NCBI GenBank assembly: GCA_022562795.1
Contig: JADFOP010000017.1
Location: 1-36,034, forward strand
Origin: Nitrospinota bacterium
GTDB lineage: Bacteria; JADFOP01
Length of the DNA stretch: 36,034 nt
Reading direction: 5' to 3'
Positions 1 through 6,229 of this stretch are shown here, in pieces; position 1 is the stretch's first letter, and each line of letters begins with the position of its first letter. The position numbers and the translations under genes are program-made. A model generated the notes under the pieces. The model made no database searches. It was not told where the DNA came from and saw nothing but the letters and a program-made list of their open reading frames with translations.

Positions 1-43
1 CCTTTCCTTGAGTTTTTGCGAGACGGACCGGCGAGCTGTTCAC

Positions 44-81
44 AAAAAAACCGCACGGCGTACAACAGACGCCTGTGCGGT
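44..81 (-). terminator. Intrinsic terminator/attenuator hairpin in the leader of a gene that starts left of the window
   Basis: Minus strand reads ACCGCACAGGCGT-ctgttgt-ACGCCGTGCGGT-TTTTTT. An SD-like AAGGAAAGG lies at positions 1-9 on the same strand. Confidence 0.6.
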
Positions 82-131
82 GGCCTGTCGTTCTTGCGTC
101 GTTCTTGCCTAGTCTATCTCTTGCTCTCCAA

Positions 132-160
132 ACAATAGGACAAATGTCGGAAGAAAGCAA
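132..160 (-). promoter_or_regulatory. Putative sigma70 promoter
   Basis: TTGCTT-N17-TATTGT on the minus strand, upstream of the 44-81 hairpin. Confidence 0.4.
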
Positions 161-196
161 GACTTATTTTTGGGTCTTAGCGGATAATATTTTCCC

Positions 197-284
197 AGGT
201 AATCTTAACTCTGGCCATCAACCGGATTGTTTTGACCTGGACGCCTACCTAAAGACTAAAGGTTAAACTATATATAACGTTCTG
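197..284 (+). repeat. att-like direct repeat, copy 1 (internally deleted relative to copy 3)
   Basis: 231-284 is identical to 1331-1384. 197-219 matches 2323-2345 at 22/23. Confidence 0.9.
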
Positions 285-784
285 AAGTCGGAACCACCTG
301 ATGGCGTGGCGAGAGTGCATATTTCATCTGAAATTGCCCCTGAGCCCCAACGGTCACGAGTGATGATTACATCGTGAAGTTGATATACGGGTTGCCCTTG
401 ATTGAATAAAATTAATGGGGCCGGGTAGGTGTCCTGCCTTTTCCGGCGGCCGTCCGTAGGCCCCCCCAAGACATACCACTAACCTATCAGGTAAAAGTCA
501 ATGGCTCAAGTTAAAGGCCAACGGTCCTAACATGGAAGAAATAGAGCGGGACATCAGGAAAATGTGGGGCGTGGCTTCACTCCCGGTATCATTGGGCCAC
601 ACAGTGACAGGGTAGGCGTCCAACAACGGTTTATCGAATCGAGCCCCATGTGATTGAGTGGAGGCGAAGGGGGAACGGTGACGTTCTATTCCTTTTGGAA
701 GGACAAACTATCCCTTTGGCAAGCGCAACTTGAATGCATGCGGTTGCCGAGTGTCAAAAAGAGAGCTTGAGGGTCCGTACTACC

Positions 785-1057
785 CTATGAGGCAGCGTTC
801 TTGAGCGCCTTAGCCGCCTTGAAAGTAGGCACCCGCCGGGCCGGAATGTGAATAGGCTGACCCGTTTGAGGGTTGCGGCCCATCCTGGCGGCTCGATTAG
901 AGATGCCGAAGGTTCCGAGGCCGGCGAGGGCGATTCTTCCCCCTCCACCCAAAGTGGTCTGGATGGAGTTGACGATGTAATCCACCGCTTGGCCTGCCTT
1001 CGCCTTGGTGATGCCGCACTCATTAGCGAGGAGACTGACGAGTTCCGCCTTGGTCAT
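785..1057 (-). CDS. hup: HU/IHF-family DNA-binding protein, 90 aa
   Basis: MTKAELV...GLGTF...RAARMGRNPQTG...IPARRVPTFKAAKALK signature; AAGGAG SD before the ATG at 1057. Confidence 0.95.
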   Translation of the reverse strand: MTKAELVSLLANECGITKAKAGQAVDYIVNSIQTTLGGGGRIALAGLGTFGISNRAARMGRNPQTGQPIHIPARRVPTFKAAKALKNAAS

Positions 1058-1151
1058 TTCCTTCTCCTTCGTTCCATGGAGAAGAGCGCTTAAAAATGAC
1101 TCCCGTTGCACGCTGGCCGAGCGGACATGACTCCCTCTATGGTAACTCACA

Positions 1152-1183
1152 ATTATAAGACGACACATGGAACCACTTGTCAA
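1152..1183 (-). promoter_or_regulatory. Consensus -35/-10 hexamers with an unusually long spacer upstream of hup
   Basis: TTGACA-N20-TATAAT on the minus strand. Confidence 0.4.
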
Positions 1184-1270
1184 GCAAAAAATGCCGTCAC
1201 GACGGGCTTTCCGCCCGACCTGCTCCTTCTGAGGGCCGAAGGGAGATTAGCTTAAGCTGAGGCGTTAGGG

Positions 1271-1384
1271 GCAACTTCATCGTAAATCCTAACTTGGCAT
1301 GGGCAAGCTGGAAGGCCAGGACCGGGTTGATTTGACCTGGACGCCTACCTAAAGACTAAAGGTTAAACTATATATAACGTTCTG
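1271..1384 (+). repeat. att-like direct repeat, copy 2
   Basis: 1271-1383 vs 2403-2516: 4 substitutions and 1 indel. Last 54 bp identical to copy 1. Confidence 0.95.
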
Positions 1385-1420
1385 CTCATCGGCCCCCTGG
1401 GGACGGGCGTGCTCGCGCGA
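1376..1420 (+). pseudogene. comM: Short decayed comM (YifB) Walker-A relic
   Basis: Translates NVLLIGPLGTGVLAR versus [17 protein letters not shown] at 2509 onward. Confidence 0.65.
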
Positions 1421-1470
1421 TCCTTAGTGTAAGGCTACTCCTGCCTCGCCCACCACCAAGCTGGTTTCCG

Positions 1471-1818
1471 CTATCCCCATATAGTGTAGTTCCTATCGAC
1501 TATATCTGAGCCAGTTGCTGTGGGCGGCCATTCCCGCTCTGTATCAATGAGTTCTTCCTTCAGGGTTTTATCGTCCTTAACAATCGCTATGTACAGGAAT
1601 TTGCCTGTGGGGCTATGGCCCTTCGCCTCTTCGTAAGAAAAGGGTCCTAGCCTGTAAAGCTTGTCTCTGCTGTCACCGTAGCCCAGGATATATTTCACGC
1701 CTGCCTCTTTGGACCCCACCGGTGGTTTGCTGGGCAGCTGCAACGTAGCCGAACCGGTGGGGTGGTTGAAACGGACCACAAAAGATAGAAAAATTTCTGA
1801 CACATTATGTTCGCTCAT
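1471..1818 (-). CDS. Hypothetical protein, 115 aa
   Basis: ATG at 1818 with GGAAGGA SD; protein-like composition; no family recognised. Confidence 0.6.
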   Translation of the reverse strand: MSEHNVSEIFLSFVVRFNHPTGSATLQLPSKPPVGSKEAGVKYILGYGDSRDKLYRLGPFSYEEAKGHSPTGKFLYIAIVKDDKTLKEELIDTEREWPPTATGSDIVDRNYTIWG

Positions 1819-1880
1819 GTTGAATCCTTCCCCTACCCCTGCCGCGCCCACCATCAGGCGACCCTATTGAGGGTAGAGCC

Positions 1881-2123
1881 TCAAGGCGGGCCCTCCTCTC
1901 GATCCACCCAAAACTTTCCCATGGAGATGGAGCGCTTGATTGCTTCGCCCTTGTCTTTACAAACATGTGATTCTTGGTCCTTCACGACCTTCTCTAGTGT
2001 TTTTCCCGCTTCGTACTTCCAAGCTCTAAACCGGGCAATCCAGCCACCTCCATCAGGGTTTCTGACCGGCATAGCCTTGATAATATGGTTCCTGTATTTG
2101 ATTTTATCTATATCCTCAGCCAT
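1881..2123 (-). CDS. Small basic hypothetical protein, 80 aa
   Basis: ATG at 2123 with GGAGGAG SD (MAEDIDKIKYRNHIIKAMP...); no family recognised. Confidence 0.65.
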   Translation of the reverse strand: MAEDIDKIKYRNHIIKAMPVRNPDGGGWIARFRAWKYEAGKTLEKVVKDQESHVCKDKGEAIKRSISMGKFWVDREEGPP

Positions 2124-2322
2124 TAAAAGCCCTCCTCCGTGCCCAGGCACGCTCTTTGCTACGCGCGTGCGCGCACGTTCTTTGATATAAGGTTGCGGCT
2201 GGGCAGAAACCTTCTTTGCCACGATGTGACCTGCCCCCATTCATTGTACCACCTTTAGAGTTAGAGTTTGGTGGTTTTTCGTCTCCCTATGAGCTGGTCT
2301 TGGCCACAGGTTCGATTATCCT

Positions 2323-2516
2323 AGGTAATCTTAACTATGGCCATCCGACCGAAAAGTTCATATTTCAACAGTTATTGCCCCTGAGGTCTAATCGAGTCAG
2401 TAGCAACTACATCGTAAATCCTAACTTTGCATGGGCAAACTGGAAGGCCAGGACCGGGTTGATTTGACATGGACGCCTACCTAAAGACTAAAAGGTTAAA
2501 CTATATATAACGTTCT
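2323..2516 (+). repeat. att-like direct repeat, copy 3 (longest form)
   Basis: Contains every module seen in copies 1 and 2 and ends in ctatatataacgttct, fused to comM sequence. Confidence 0.9.
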
Positions 2517-2688
2517 TCTTATCGGCCCGCCGGGGGCGGGCAAGAGCATGCTGGCAAAGCGCCTGCCGACGATCCTTCCGGCCATGAGCCTGGAAGAGGC
2601 GATCGAGGCTACAAAAGTCCATTCCGTAGCGGGCCTGACCCGGAGCAATGGCGCCCTCATCACGCGGTGGCCAAGCGTTTGCGCGCCG
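2509..2688 (+). pseudogene. comM: Internal fragment of comM/YifB Mg-chelatase-like AAA+ ATPase, about 60 codons, no 5' or 3' part
   Basis: In-frame [43 protein letters not shown]...LITRWP..AP, the ComM Walker-A region ending where RPFRAPHH is expected. Confidence 0.9.
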
Positions 2689-2773
2689 GGGCGTTTGAAT
2701 TTGCGTCGCCCGGGGTCGTCTCCCTCCTTATCTGAGAGGCGAGGATTATCGAATCGAAGGCGTCCGGGCATAT

Positions 2774-2824
2774 CATCAACGCCGCCTTGGGTAGTTGACA
2801 AGGCCCTATCTTAGATGGTAGAAG
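2774..2824 (+). promoter_or_regulatory. bio operon promoter with possible BirA-like dyad
   Basis: TTGACA(2795)-N18-TAGAAG with TG extension; caTCAAC-N13-GTTGACA overlaps the -35. Confidence 0.4.
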
Positions 2825-2943
2825 AAAGCCCCGATTGGGCCCGCCCTAGGGCGGGCCTTGCACTATTCGGGGGCCGCCGAGAGTGCAGCCGCCCCTCTTT
2901 TTGGAGGCCGCGCTCGTGCTCCATTCCTTAATTGAGACCATCG

Positions 2944-4146
2944 ATGAACGCTGAGCCTGATACCGCCAGCGCGCCCTGGGCCAGGGCCCTAGAGGCGTTA
3001 GAGCGTCGGGGCCGCAGGCGCAGGATGCGAATAGTCGATCTTGGAGAGGACGGCCGCTGGGTGGTTGACGGCCGGCCCGTAATCCACCTCTCCAGCAACG
3101 ACTACCTGGGTCTCGCCCGACACCCGGCCGTGTTGGAGGCTGCCGAGGCGGCCCTTCGCCGCTGGGGGGCCAGCGCGTCATCGGCCCGGCTCATCGCGGG
3201 GAACCTCGAGCCTCACCGGGAGATCGAGGAGGCCCTGGCGGCGTTCGAAGGGACCGAGGCGGCCCTGCTATACTCGACGGGCTACATGGCCAACGTCGGG
3301 GTCATCGGCGCGATCGTCGGGCCGGGCGATGCGGTTTACTCCGACGAGCTCAACCACGCCTCCCTGATCGATGGCTGTAGGCTGGCGGGAGCAAAGCTAC
3401 GGACCTATCCCCACGCCGACGCCGGGGCCTTGGAGGCGATGCTGGCTGAAGATGAAGAGGCAGGCCGGTATCGAAGGCGGCTTCTCGCCACCGACGGGCT
3501 TTTCAGCATGGATGGAGACGTTGCTCCCCTGGCCTCCCTGGTAGATATAAAGGAGAGGTACGGCTGCTGGATGCTGGTCGACGAGGCCCACGCCACGGGG
3601 GTCCTGGGGGAGGGGGGTCGCGGGAGCATCGAGCAGTGCGGGGTGAGCGGCCGGGTGGAGTTCGTCGTGGGCACCCTGGGAAAAAGCCTGGGGAGCTTCG
3701 GCGCCTACGTGGCCGCCGAGCGGGACGCCATTGACTACCTGGTAAATCGGTCGAGGAGCTTCATCTTCACCACCGCTCCTCCTCCGCCGGTTGTAGCAGC
3801 CGCCCGGGCCGCCCTTGCGGTGCTCGAGGCCGAGCCCGAACGAAGGGAGCGCCTCTGGGAGAACATCCGCCGGATGGCAGGGGGCCTTGAGGCCATAGGC
3901 GCCGAGACGATGGGATCCACCACACAGATTTTTCCCCTCCTTGTGGGCGGCGACGCCGAGGCCATGGCCTTCAGCGACGCTCTTTTGGAGGCGGGGCTCT
4001 TCGCCCAGGGGATTCGGCCGCCGACGGTGCCCAAGGGGACGGCGCGCCTTCGCCTCACCGTGACGGCGGCTCTGGGGTCGGACGAGATCGGCCGCGCCCT
4101 TGAGATTATTGAGAAGGTGGGCAGGCGGCAGGGGGTGATTCGTTGA
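2944..4146 (+). CDS. bioF: 8-amino-7-oxononanoate synthase
   Basis: SSNDYLGL, DELNHASLIDG, DGLFSMDGD, VDEAHATG, GTLGKSLG, IRPPTVP motifs. Confidence 0.97.
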   Translation: MNAEPDTASAPWARALEALERRGRRRRMRIVDLGEDGRWVVDGRPVIHLSSNDYLGLARHPAVLEAAEAALRRWGASASSARLIAGNLEPHREIEEALAAFEGTEAALLYSTGYMANVGVIGAIVGPGDAVYSDELNHASLIDGCRLAGAKLRTYPHADAGALEAMLAEDEEAGRYRRRLLATDGLFSMDGDVAPLASLVDIKERYGCWMLVDEAHATGVLGEGGRGSIEQCGVSGRVEFVVGTLGKSLGSFGAYVAAERDAIDYLVNRSRSFIFTTAPPPPVVAAARAALAVLEAEPERRERLWENIRRMAGGLEAIGAETMGSTTQIFPLLVGGDAEAMAFSDALLEAGLFAQGIRPPTVPKGTARLRLTVTAALGSDEIGRALEIIEKVGRRQGVIR

Positions 4147-5507
4147 GCCGGGGCGAGGAGCACCCTTTGGAGCGGGCCGACAAGGCCTACGTCTGGCATC
4201 CCTTCACGCAGATGTCCGAGTGGGCGGCCGAGAGGCCCATTATCATCGAGAGCGGCGAAGGGGCGACCCTGACCGACATCCACGGGGTCACGTACCTCGA
4301 CGGGGTGAGCTCCCTCTGGGTCACCGTTCACGGCCACCGCCACCCGGAGATCGACCAGGCCATACGCGACCAGCTCGATAAGGTGGCTCACTCCACCCTG
4401 CTGGGGTTGGGCAACGTTCCGGCCGTGGAGTTCGCCGAGGCCCTCGTCGCCGAAGCCCCACCGGGCCTCACCAAAGTCTTCTACTCCGACGACGGCTCCA
4501 CGGCGGTCGAGGTGGCCCTCAAGATGGCTTTTCAGTACTGGCGGCGTCGGGAGCCGGAGAGCCGCCGCACCCGCTTCGTGAGCCTTAGGGGCGGCTACCA
4601 CGGCGACACCTTGGGGGGGGTGAGCGTGGGTGGCATCGACCTCTTCCATGCGGCCTTCCGCCCGCTGCTTTTTCCCACCGAGCAGATCCCTGGCCCGTAC
4701 TGTTACCGTTGCGAGCTGGGGCTCACCTACCCGGAGTGTGAGCTCGCATGCGCTGAGGCCTTGGGCCCCGCGCTGGAGCGTCTTGAGGGGGAGGTGGCGG
4801 CGGTCATCGTCGAGCCGGTGGTCCAGGGCGCTGCGGGGATGGTCACCGCCCCGCCCGGGCACCTTCGCAAAATTCGTGAGCTCTGTGATGCTCACGGGAC
4901 CTTGCTCATCTGTGACGAGGTGGCGACGGGGTTCGGCCGCACGGGGACCATCTTTGCCTGCGAGCAAGATGGGGTGAGTCCCGACATCCTTTGTTTGGCC
5001 AAGGGTATCACGGGGGGCTACCTTCCCCTCGCCGCGACCCTTGTGACCGAAGAGATTTACGAGGCCTTCCTCGGGTCATATGAGGATCAGAAGACCTTTT
5101 TCCACGGCCACTCCTATACGGGCAACCCCTTGGGGTGCGCGGCCGGGCTTGCGAGCCTCAGAATTCTCCAGCGCCCGGCTACAAAGGGTCATCTGAAGGC
5201 CCTTATCGAAAGGCTGGCCTTGGGGCTGGAGCGTATCCGGGGGCTGGCCCACGTAGGAGAGGTCCGCCAGCGGGGTCTGATGGTCGGCATCGAGCTGGTC
5301 CGAGACAAGGAGAGCCGAGAGCCTTACGGGTGGGAGGAACGGATGGGCATCAAGACCATTCTGGAGGCTCGCGCCCAGGGAGTCATCCTTCGTCCTCTCG
5401 GCAACGTAATCGTGCTCATGCCACCCGTGGGTATGACCCTTGAGCAGTGCGACAGGCTCCTTGAGGTGACCGAGGCCTCCATCCAGGCGGCAACAGAGGA
5501 GGAATAA
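4143..5507 (+). CDS. bioA: Adenosylmethionine-8-amino-7-oxononanoate aminotransferase
   Basis: VWHPFTQM, SSLWV..HGH, GYHGDT, DEVATGFGRTG, AKGITGGYLPL, HGHSYTGNPL; TTG start overlaps the bioF stop. Confidence 0.97.
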   Translation: MSRGEEHPLERADKAYVWHPFTQMSEWAAERPIIIESGEGATLTDIHGVTYLDGVSSLWVTVHGHRHPEIDQAIRDQLDKVAHSTLLGLGNVPAVEFAEALVAEAPPGLTKVFYSDDGSTAVEVALKMAFQYWRRREPESRRTRFVSLRGGYHGDTLGGVSVGGIDLFHAAFRPLLFPTEQIPGPYCYRCELGLTYPECELACAEALGPALERLEGEVAAVIVEPVVQGAAGMVTAPPGHLRKIRELCDAHGTLLICDEVATGFGRTGTIFACEQDGVSPDILCLAKGITGGYLPLAATLVTEEIYEAFLGSYEDQKTFFHGHSYTGNPLGCAAGLASLRILQRPATKGHLKALIERLALGLERIRGLAHVGEVRQRGLMVGIELVRDKESREPYGWEERMGIKTILEARAQGVILRPLGNVIVLMPPVGMTLEQCDRLLEVTEASIQAATEEE

Positions 5508-5512
5508 TAGGG

Positions 5513-6229
5513 GTGAGCCGGGGACTTTTTGTCACGGGGACTGATTCGGGGGTCGGAAAGACCCTCGTTGCCGGCGGCATAGCGGCGGCCCTCTCCGCCC
5601 GGGGGGTTGATGTGGGAGTGGTGAAGCCCGTCGAGAGCGGCTGCGTTCGGACCTCCAACGGGCTTTTCCCGGCCGACGCCGCCTTCCTCAAGCGGATGGC
5701 CGGCGCACAAGAGCCCTTGGAGGCCATCTGCCCTGTGCGGCTTGAGGCTCCCCTCGCCCCCGCCGTGGCAGCGGAGCGCGAAGGGGTGACGATCAGCCTT
5801 GAGGAGCTGGAGGCAGCCGTCCGGGCGGTCGCTTCGGGCCATGCCTTCACCCTGTGCGAGGGGGCCGGGGGTCTCTATGTCCCCCTCGACGACGACAGAG
5901 GATGCGTCATCCACCTTATCGAGAGAGTCGCATTTCCTGTCCTCGTTGTGGGTCGGCTGGGCCTGGGGACCATCAACCACACGACCCTTACCGTGCGGGC
6001 ACTCCAGGTCGCCGGAGCGTCGGTGGCCGGAATAGTCCTCTCCCAAACCGCTCCAGTGCGAGGTCAGGCGGAGGAGACGAATCCGGGCGTGGTTGAGGGG
6101 TTGACGGGCATTCCCCTCCTGGGCGTTGTTCCCTATCTGGAGGAGTTCAGTGACGGACAACGGATAGAGCGGGGGGTCCTGGCAGGAGTCATCGAAGAGG
6201 TGCTCGACCTCAGCATGGTTTTAATGTAA
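5513..6229 (+). CDS. bioD: Dethiobiotin synthase
   Basis: FVTGTDSGVGKT, KPVESG, EGAGG, LGTINHT motifs. Confidence 0.97.
   Translation: MSRGLFVTGTDSGVGKTLVAGGIAAALSARGVDVGVVKPVESGCVRTSNGLFPADAAFLKRMAGAQEPLEAICPVRLEAPLAPAVAAEREGVTISLEELEAAVRAVASGHAFTLCEGAGGLYVPLDDDRGCVIHLIERVAFPVLVVGRLGLGTINHTTLTVRALQVAGASVAGIVLSQTAPVRGQAEETNPGVVEGLTGIPLLGVVPYLEEFSDGQRIERGVLAGVIEEVLDLSMVLM

Follow-up and report, generated by a model that had tools for sequence, protein, structure and literature searches.

Streptococcal elements that are integrative and conjugative (ICEs) and those that are integrative and mobilizable (IMEs) form islands by tandem accretion, and cis-mobilizable elements (CIMEs) of these islands have no recombinase genes and keep their attachment (att) sites; a new unit enters at an attR site that contains part of the target gene (PMC5704250). 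Dehalococcoides carries tandem islands at ssrA in a hypervariable region, and part of the target gene, repeated directly, marks the bounds of each island. This repeat comprises 20 bp from the 3' end of ssrA, the intact gene precedes the islands, the serine integrase DsiB is found in 16 islands, and some islands without integration genes are discussed as cis-mobilizable (PMC3146451). The gene comM is a target of another kind. Tn6022 (with TnsF) and Tsy elements target a 10-bp region within Walker B of comM; Tsy elements encode tyrosine recombinases and have comM 5' and 3' pieces on either side, and inverted repeats went undetected for Tsy (PMC10293859). Here we describe a stack of small gene units at the start of a 36,034-nt stretch of DNA, hereafter the window, from a Nitrospinota bacterium (GCA_022562795.1, contig JADFOP010000017.1). 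A 64-nt repeat, which we call R, lies there in three direct copies and ends in an 8-bp core that is also found in comM. We believe that the window holds a decayed, recombinase-less stack of right-end junctions of integrative elements that target comM, built by tandem accretion at the core, and we give this a probability of roughly 0.55.

The stack resembles streptococcal CIMEs in its recombinase-less units and in an att-like site repeated in direct order. It differs from them in the size of the units (~1.1 kb), in a target that lies inside the protein gene comM, in its position away from the target gene and in a second repeat, X, that is interleaved with the first. The row of units bounded by target-gene pieces is shared with the Dehalococcoides ssrA islands, whereas the comM pieces here measure 28-200 nt and belong to differing alleles, and an integrase was not found in the searches described below. 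As for Tn6022 and Tsy, comM is the dedicated target; unlike theirs, the joint here precedes Walker A, and the element has inverted-repeat ends around an 8-bp repeat. An earlier reading made from the letters alone (the sequence-only reading) had taken the Walker A region as the established target of Tn6022 and Tsy, which disagrees with the Walker B position given in the source. Direct att-like repeats thus delimit units without integration genes, with three R-core copies and, as cargo, a gene for the protein HU and two small open reading frames (ORFs). Tandem accretion of cis-mobilizable elements is the known kind that fits this better than an integron does. It fits every tested feature but one, which is that the stack does not adjoin its target gene. 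Staphylococcal cassette chromosome (SCC) and pseudo-SCC islands at staphylococcal rlmH also hold recombinase-less cassettes with target-derived direct repeats that are mobilised in trans. They differ in their serine Ccr recombinase and in target and host, and their arrays remain at the target gene.

Three direct copies of R

The window is the start of contig C26 of the source genome (G000, 2.15 Mb in 84 contigs). We compared it with G001, a sister species of the same genus (780 contigs, 85% complete), and with G002, which belongs to the same class; the phylum-wide pattern search covers three genomes. Scanning metagenome contigs for R yielded three from close strains (L055, L056 and L057). Metagenome support on positions 1-3400 comes from the assembled contigs of four public runs, from four studies. 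The copies of R and their partners are as follows (strand in brackets; contig numbers given alone, here and below, belong to the genome under discussion).

189 to 226 (+): A half of an X copy that R splits; left partner of R copy 1; nhmmer profile positions 3-40
221 to 284 (+): R copy 1, core at 276-283
284 to 311 (+): alpha stub, right partner of R copy 1; 28 nt, diverged, possibly comM-derived
312 to 378 (+): B half of this X copy (nhmmer E 2.4e-13, profile positions 41-106)
1260 to 1320 (+): tail of an X B half (to about 1288), then block A2, which precedes R copies 2 and 3 as their left partner
1321 to 1384 (+): R copy 2, core at 1376-1383
1384 to 1408 (+): beta comM remnant; with the core, 33 nt of an older comM allele
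2314 to 2417 (+): complete X repeat (A half, 13-nt spacer, B half); nhmmer E 7.8e-27
2418 to 2452 (+): block A2, from the repeat-family alignment
2453 to 2516 (+): R copy 3, core at 2509-2516
2509 to 2688 (+): gamma comM fragment, ComM residues ~215 to ~270 including Walker A, truncated on the right

The repeat search places R in one family of three direct copies (copy 2 at 97%). The sequence-only reading had reported a 53-nt core at 231, 1331 and 2463. Its three direct copies and their spacings of 1100 and 1132 stand; only at 231 and 1331 does the 53-mer match exactly (100 shuffles gave 0 matches), and the copy at 2463 has one substitution and one inserted A. The final 23 nt of R, GGTTAAACTATATATAACGTTCT, are exact in 3/3 copies (0 expected), and the repeat ends in the 8-bp core AACGTTCT. 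That reading had not noticed that 2314-2417 is X, a separate dispersed repeat with 29 hits in the genome. R is not confined to this locus, as it occurs three times in G001 and in three metagenome contigs.

The joint of R with comM

The resident comM of G000 is intact, encodes 509 aa and lies on contig C11, outside the window. In copy 3 of R, the core at 2509-2516 is in frame with the N-V-L of ComM. Window 2509-2688 aligns with comM at C11:18468-18292 with 95.6% identity over 181 columns, and the gamma fragment gives a PF01078 match at 2506-2664 (57 bits). The joint falls between the His-Asn and Val-Leu codons that precede GPPGAGKS, the Walker A motif. Because resident ComM reads through the same residues there, we place the R/comM joint at the Asn codon just before Walker A. 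Both the frame and the match to C11 bear out the earlier statement that the copies end in AAC GTT CT, which in copy 3 is the N-V-L of ComM before Walker A. The right break of gamma at 2688 is crossed by contigs from three runs of three studies. The remnant behind copy 2 is more diverged, with 88% identity of 1376-1408 to comM of C11; R and beta together are 97.7% identical to L056, where the same comM allele continues for ~200 nt. The alpha stub behind copy 1 matches resident comM weakly (28/40 identity) and may be a much older Walker-A remnant of the gene.

In G001 a search with the G000 ComM finds comM in pieces. Contig C22 holds residues 1-183. Contig C490 (308 nt) holds comM-5' sequence ending in CACAACGTGCT, followed by non-comM DNA, and forms the left junction; past ...GGCCACAACGTGCT it continues as unrelated AT-rich DNA with a terminator-like hairpin. 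Contig C282 reads X-A2-R-AACGTGCT and then comM-3' from the same codon, which is the right junction, and it overlaps C21, the contig with the remaining comM, by 55 identical nt. The same 8 bp, AACGTGCT, stand at both junctions, and AACGTTCT occurs once in the intact comM of G000. From the junctions in C490 and C282 we conclude that the interruption of comM in G001 lies exactly at the position of the R/comM joint in the window.

The left end begins with bases that agree with the reverse complement of the end of R at 14/15 positions. The motif ATAWATAGTTTAA has only three occurrences in G000, all at R copies, and a strict pattern for the uninterrupted comM junction is found at one place in G000 (C11) and at none in G001, which is 85% complete. 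Together with the two junctions, the inverted match, the motif and the pattern counts indicate that R forms the terminal arm on the right of an element whose ends are inverted and whose target is AACGTKCT in comM. The view of the sequence-only reading that R is an element end fused to comM therefore gains from G001, where the gene is split at the very codon, AACGTGCT stands at both junctions and the arms are inverted. The intact comM of G000 would be the empty site. Both comM halves flank the element in G001; in G000 we see right-type joints only.

The right junction contig of G001 forks to a second path (G001:C11) in which comM stops after about 150 nt, and by this comparison G001 appears to have both a true right junction and a comM scrap like that of the window. 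In G001 the left end matches its own contig only, apart from 98 nt of C44, a paralogous stretch with ordinary cargo behind it. Neither R nor the left end has a match among viral contigs. In C282 (locus L022) a run of ten C after R adds a proline codon to Walker A (GPPPGAGKS); the copy is either disabled or misassembled here.

Reassortment of partners at R

Nine copies of R were compared, three from the window, three from G001 (C282, C432 and C641) and three from the metagenome contigs, each divided into four segments: a 45-nt left flank, 56 nt of R, the 12 nt that follow and a 40-nt right flank. R agrees at 84-100% in every pair. Seven copies have the same sequence in the 12-nt segment, which holds the core; this segment differs by one base in G001:C282 and is replaced in G001:C641, a copy in which R ends differently. 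On the left, class A (an X half behind a csp unit) is found at window copy 1, L056 and L057, and class A2 at window copies 2 and 3, L055 and all G001 copies. On the right, the alpha stub followed by an X B half is found at window copy 1, L055, L057 and G001:C432, and comM at window copies 2 and 3, L056 and G001:C282. All four combinations of left (A, A2) and right (alpha, comM) partners occur (4/4). Block A2 was also tried as a diverged A half; this was dropped at 53% over 45 nt, which is background.

Between the classes, identity of the 40 nt right of the core drops to 52-65% directly past the core. The alpha stub itself is 92-95% conserved between genomes (window against L055 and G001:C432). 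L056 and window copy 1 have left flanks that are 93% identical and R at 100%, and their right partners differ: past R, L056 runs through ~200 nt of comM and then B, and window copy 1 through alpha and then B. Contig C60 of G000 carries the same left flank as R copy 1, but with an unsplit X. The comM remnants are of distinct alleles. Against resident comM, gamma agrees at 143/145 over the first 145 nt after the core, beta (in L056) at 123/146 with stops, and the G001 remnant at 117/148; the first 33 nt of beta in L056 equal window copy 2. Because R is near-identical beside very different partners, and all four combinations are found, we favor exchange at the edges of R over duplication and drift. 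In these alignments the reassortment of partners indicates what would be site-specific exchange rather than plain duplication.

The same structure might have come from local duplication, homologous recombination among dispersed repeats and strain mixing, with R having no site-specific activity. This would agree with the likeness of copies 2 and 3, which extends beyond R over 139 nt (1271-1408 against 2403-2541, 92.8%), with the abundance of assembly-breaking repeats (23/29 X hits within 3.5 kb of a contig end) and with a 265-bp deletion between 8-bp repeats in three runs. It does not explain why identity falls from 84-100% to 52-65% exactly past the core, why four partner combinations exist, why copies 2 and 3 carry different comM alleles, or why the same joint stands on both sides of the split comM of G001. 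We regard it as unlikely.

Repeat X and a catalytic-domain-only recombinase

X is a dispersed repeat of ~105 nt with 29 nhmmer hits in G000, 25 of them with E < 1e-8; two of the 29 are the halves (189-226 and 312-378) of the copy that R splits. Copies lie on contigs C3, C10, C12, C17, C32, C42, C60, C64, C66 and others. The share of hits within 3.5 kb of a contig end (23/29) compares with about 27% expected, and the depth over X in the four public runs is about 10-50x that of neighbouring cargo. The gene on the B side of X is on the opposite strand in 18/25 rows (17/24 with the split copy counted once; custom gene caller), so X mostly follows the 3' ends of genes. On C42, in the surroundings of two X copies, consecutive G000 segments map to four G001 contigs at 77-90% identity, and one segment boundary is adjoined by an X-type site in G000 and by a related one in G001. 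On this segment mapping, X marks mosaic, variable regions and breaks of synteny with G001.

A 214-aa tyrosine recombinase, P0001, that consists of the catalytic domain only has five paralogues in G001, with 76-100% identity between the proteins. It belongs to PF00589, is most like XerC/XerD and is not an HUH transposase. For 2/5 paralogues, inverted repeats of 67-68 bp enclose the recombinase gene together with a small ORF upstream of it.

L037 1313-2581 and L040 633-1935, both in G001: ~1.27-kb recombinase module between 67-68-bp inverted repeats

The small ORF has a ribbon-helix-helix look by eye. The inverted repeats and the B half of X have two boxes in common, ATATTTCA.C and CATCGTGAAAT, at equal spacing, and the profile matches between them are weak (E 1e-3 to 1e-2). 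X, unlike R, may be of the REP/MITE-like kind, a dispersed repeat served by a cognate recombinase. The gene was not found in G000, where the best match has 42% identity; this does not show its absence, since repeat-bounded elements of 1.3 kb would give contigs shorter than any in the bin. Solo sites of the recombinase-flanking type are present in G000 at C80:382-460, C4:12892-12973, C31:19956-20039 and C53:9908-9989, with no recombinase gene nearby. At E <= 1e-10 the family has 306 relatives among the collected proteins, most of them on ~1-kb metagenome contigs; among species genomes, 5/75 loci are close relatives (at least 55% identity).

R and X could be parts of a single system, in which R is a long-spacer variant of X, all exchanges including the R/comM joint are made by the P0001 recombinase, and the Walker-A DNA serves as a pseudo-site. 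Such a system would account for R standing beside X material in 9/9 copies, either after an A half or after A2 that follows an X copy or a B-half tail, and for the boxes shared between X and the repeats around two of the five G001 paralogues. Read by eye, AAC/GTTCT..ATCGGCCC of comM is also loosely like CAAC/AGTTATTGCCCC of X. However, the terminal arm of R, AAACTATWTATAA, is unlike either box of X, the profile matches to the inverted repeats are weak, G000 is without a P0001-type recombinase beyond the 42% match, and A2 resembles A at background level. A single system appears doubtful to us on these grounds.

Recombinase, circle and fold searches

As the sequence-only reading had noted, the window is without a recombinase; G000 has three PF00589 matches, two to Xer-like genes and one to a gene for a 383-aa integrase, and each lies on another contig. 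The small G001 contigs C314 and C331 were tried as carriers of an R recombinase and rejected, as they hold the host xerC next to hslV. G001:C743 is an unplaced 70-aa C-terminal recombinase piece. The joints seen among the run contigs are other X copies and a variant with a 265-bp deletion. This deletion spans window 301-567 between two copies of the 8-bp GGCGTGGC, takes out the B half and was seen in L057 and in contigs of three runs from three studies.

For an integron integrase, the best TIGR02249 match in G000 reaches 82.9 bits against a cut-off of 265, and the 214-aa recombinase of G001 reaches 100.6 bits. R shows no attC-like fold (z -0.3 to -0.5). The fold of X is weak and inconsistent, with z at -2.6 in a single copy and between -2.3 and +0.5 among 16 B halves, and RNAalifold on 14 X copies gives no consensus structure. 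Rfam on positions 1-3000 returns nothing at E up to 1.

With integron arrays and their form without an integrase (CALIN), the locus shares small co-oriented cargo, recombination-site-like repeats between the genes and the failure to find an integrase, and the gene on the B side of X is on the opposite strand in 18/25 rows. A classical CALIN array, with R or X as attC, would be expected to look different in other respects: G000 stays at 83 bits for TIGR02249, R is unfolded and X weakly folded without a consensus structure, the repeat carries a fragment of a protein gene, and one unit is a host gene copy with its own upstream region. We consider such an array extremely improbable. The description of the locus as an integron-like cassette system was accordingly overstated, as neither an integron integrase, an attC-like fold nor a circular form was found in these searches.

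A likeness to integrons in function is conceivable, at a rather low probability: R-core might be the receptor of a cassette-gathering platform, an independently arisen functional analogue of the integron run in trans by a catalytic-domain-only Xer-like recombinase. Units with their own promoters, some of them copies of host genes (HU, csp), would then be recruited serially at the comM-derived site and shuffled at X, a picture that we hold just as tentatively.

Cargo and surroundings of the stack

The units and their neighbours add the following features.

1 to 188 (-): csp leader and upstream region; the csp gene lies beyond the left end of the contig, and the stretch is repeated in the genome
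668 to 1259 (-): cargo 1, HU gene copy with flanks, coding 785-1057; PF00216, E 1.5e-28
1471 to 1854 (-): cargo 2a, ORF of 127 aa (115 aa from the second Met), without a family
1881 to 2240 (-): cargo 2b, ORF of 119 aa; the sole match is weak and below cut-off (CV_2116 domain, E 1e-5)
2816 to 4146 (+): bioF upstream region, then bioF (2932-4146); the core genome resumes

The small genes between the R copies are thus all on the minus strand, as first described. Cargo 1 is an 86% copy of the chromosomal HU locus, C33:67068-67667, with its upstream and downstream flanks included, and L057 joins the stack-side HU copy to C33-like downstream DNA. A 28-nt motif at 2227-2254, with the ribosome-binding site and the start of the 119-aa ORF, recurs identical or nearly so beside other X copies (C66:1437-1468, C12:1383-1411 and L055) and may be a shared leader. 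The cargo of L056 and L055 comprises csp, methylglyoxal-synthase-like, DJ-1-like and STAS-like genes, named by eye.

The guanine-plus-cytosine (GC) content is 47-56% in the stack (up to 2800) against 63-68% beyond it, with a jump from ~50% to ~67% at about 2800. The bioF region is 80% identical to G001:C553 from 2912 on, and 2816-2866 is conserved too; the array is not present in the bioF upstream region of G001. The genes bioF, bioA and bioD (named by eye from translations) follow the stack on the + strand at 2932-6229. In G001, bioF is preceded by a mazG-like gene (L051, G001:C553, 1-921), for which neither blastn nor tblastn finds a match in the assembly of G000.

At the left end, the csp upstream stretch 1-188 is 97.8% identical to C60:1-225 and 78% to C66:3132-3345, and L056 extends the csp unit leftward into a CspA-like ORF. 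The repeated region (window 1-224) recurs at C60, C66, C57 and C23. Contigs C26 and C60 are 97.8% alike over this region and diverge at the X/R boundary, which is an assembly fork. As the window begins at this forking contig end, and repeats are collapsed elsewhere, the stack might be thought an assembly artefact of the metagenome bin. Yet independent metagenome contigs reproduce A-R-alpha, A-R-comM and X-A2-R-alpha-B, and the cargo is covered by four runs from four studies, three of which cross 2688; the best of these may be the source sample itself. An artefact is therefore very improbable.

Proposed formation of the stack

We propose that site-specific recombination inserts members of an element family at AACGTKCT in comM. 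With its short spacer between inverted arms of 13 nt, the site would resemble a simple tyrosine-recombinase core. The right junction of an integrated element (R-core-comM) could then serve as a substrate again; further units would enter at R-core-comM and older ones decay, leaving a row of R-core joints with small cargo between them. In the end state suggested for the window, unit 1 (~1.1 kb) would consist of alpha, B, the HU copy, A2 and R, and unit 2 (~1.1 kb) of the beta remnant, two ORFs, X, A2 and R. At the terminus the last R would be joined to 180 nt of nearly resident comM, and the stack would now stand upstream of bioF, displaced from comM. The exchanges would have been made by a recombinase acting in trans; which enzyme this was, and how the stack left comM, we can only infer.

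The sequence-only reading had likewise seen tandem miniature units mobilised in trans. The absence of recombinases from the units, their direct order and the reassortment of partners at an att-like site are in keeping with this, and the location is not, as the array is not in comM.

Several points weigh against accretion at comM. The stack lies outside comM. No recombinase was found next to any R copy, no circular or excised R joint is listed among the assembled contigs of the four runs on 1-3400, and the left end of the element has no match in G000. The split comM of G001 calls for caution, as it is read from two short contigs with forked ends in a fragmented assembly. The interior of the G001 element is unassembled. 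Part of the structure could be plain duplication, because copies 2 and 3 share 139 nt. The comM origin of the alpha stub is tentative, at 28/40 identity.

Accretion of comM-targeting elements would add a second dedicated insertion point in comM, before Walker A, beside the one described in Walker B. It would also be a case of island growth by accretion at a very small scale, with ~1-kb units, in a phylum known here from three genomes. The interleaved X repeats resemble those that surround a minimal tyrosine recombinase and point to a site-specific system by which the variable part of these genomes may be organised, and for metagenomics they explain where contigs of this lineage break. If R-core were instead the receptor of a cassette-gathering platform, this barely sampled phylum would have a functional analogue of the integron of independent origin.

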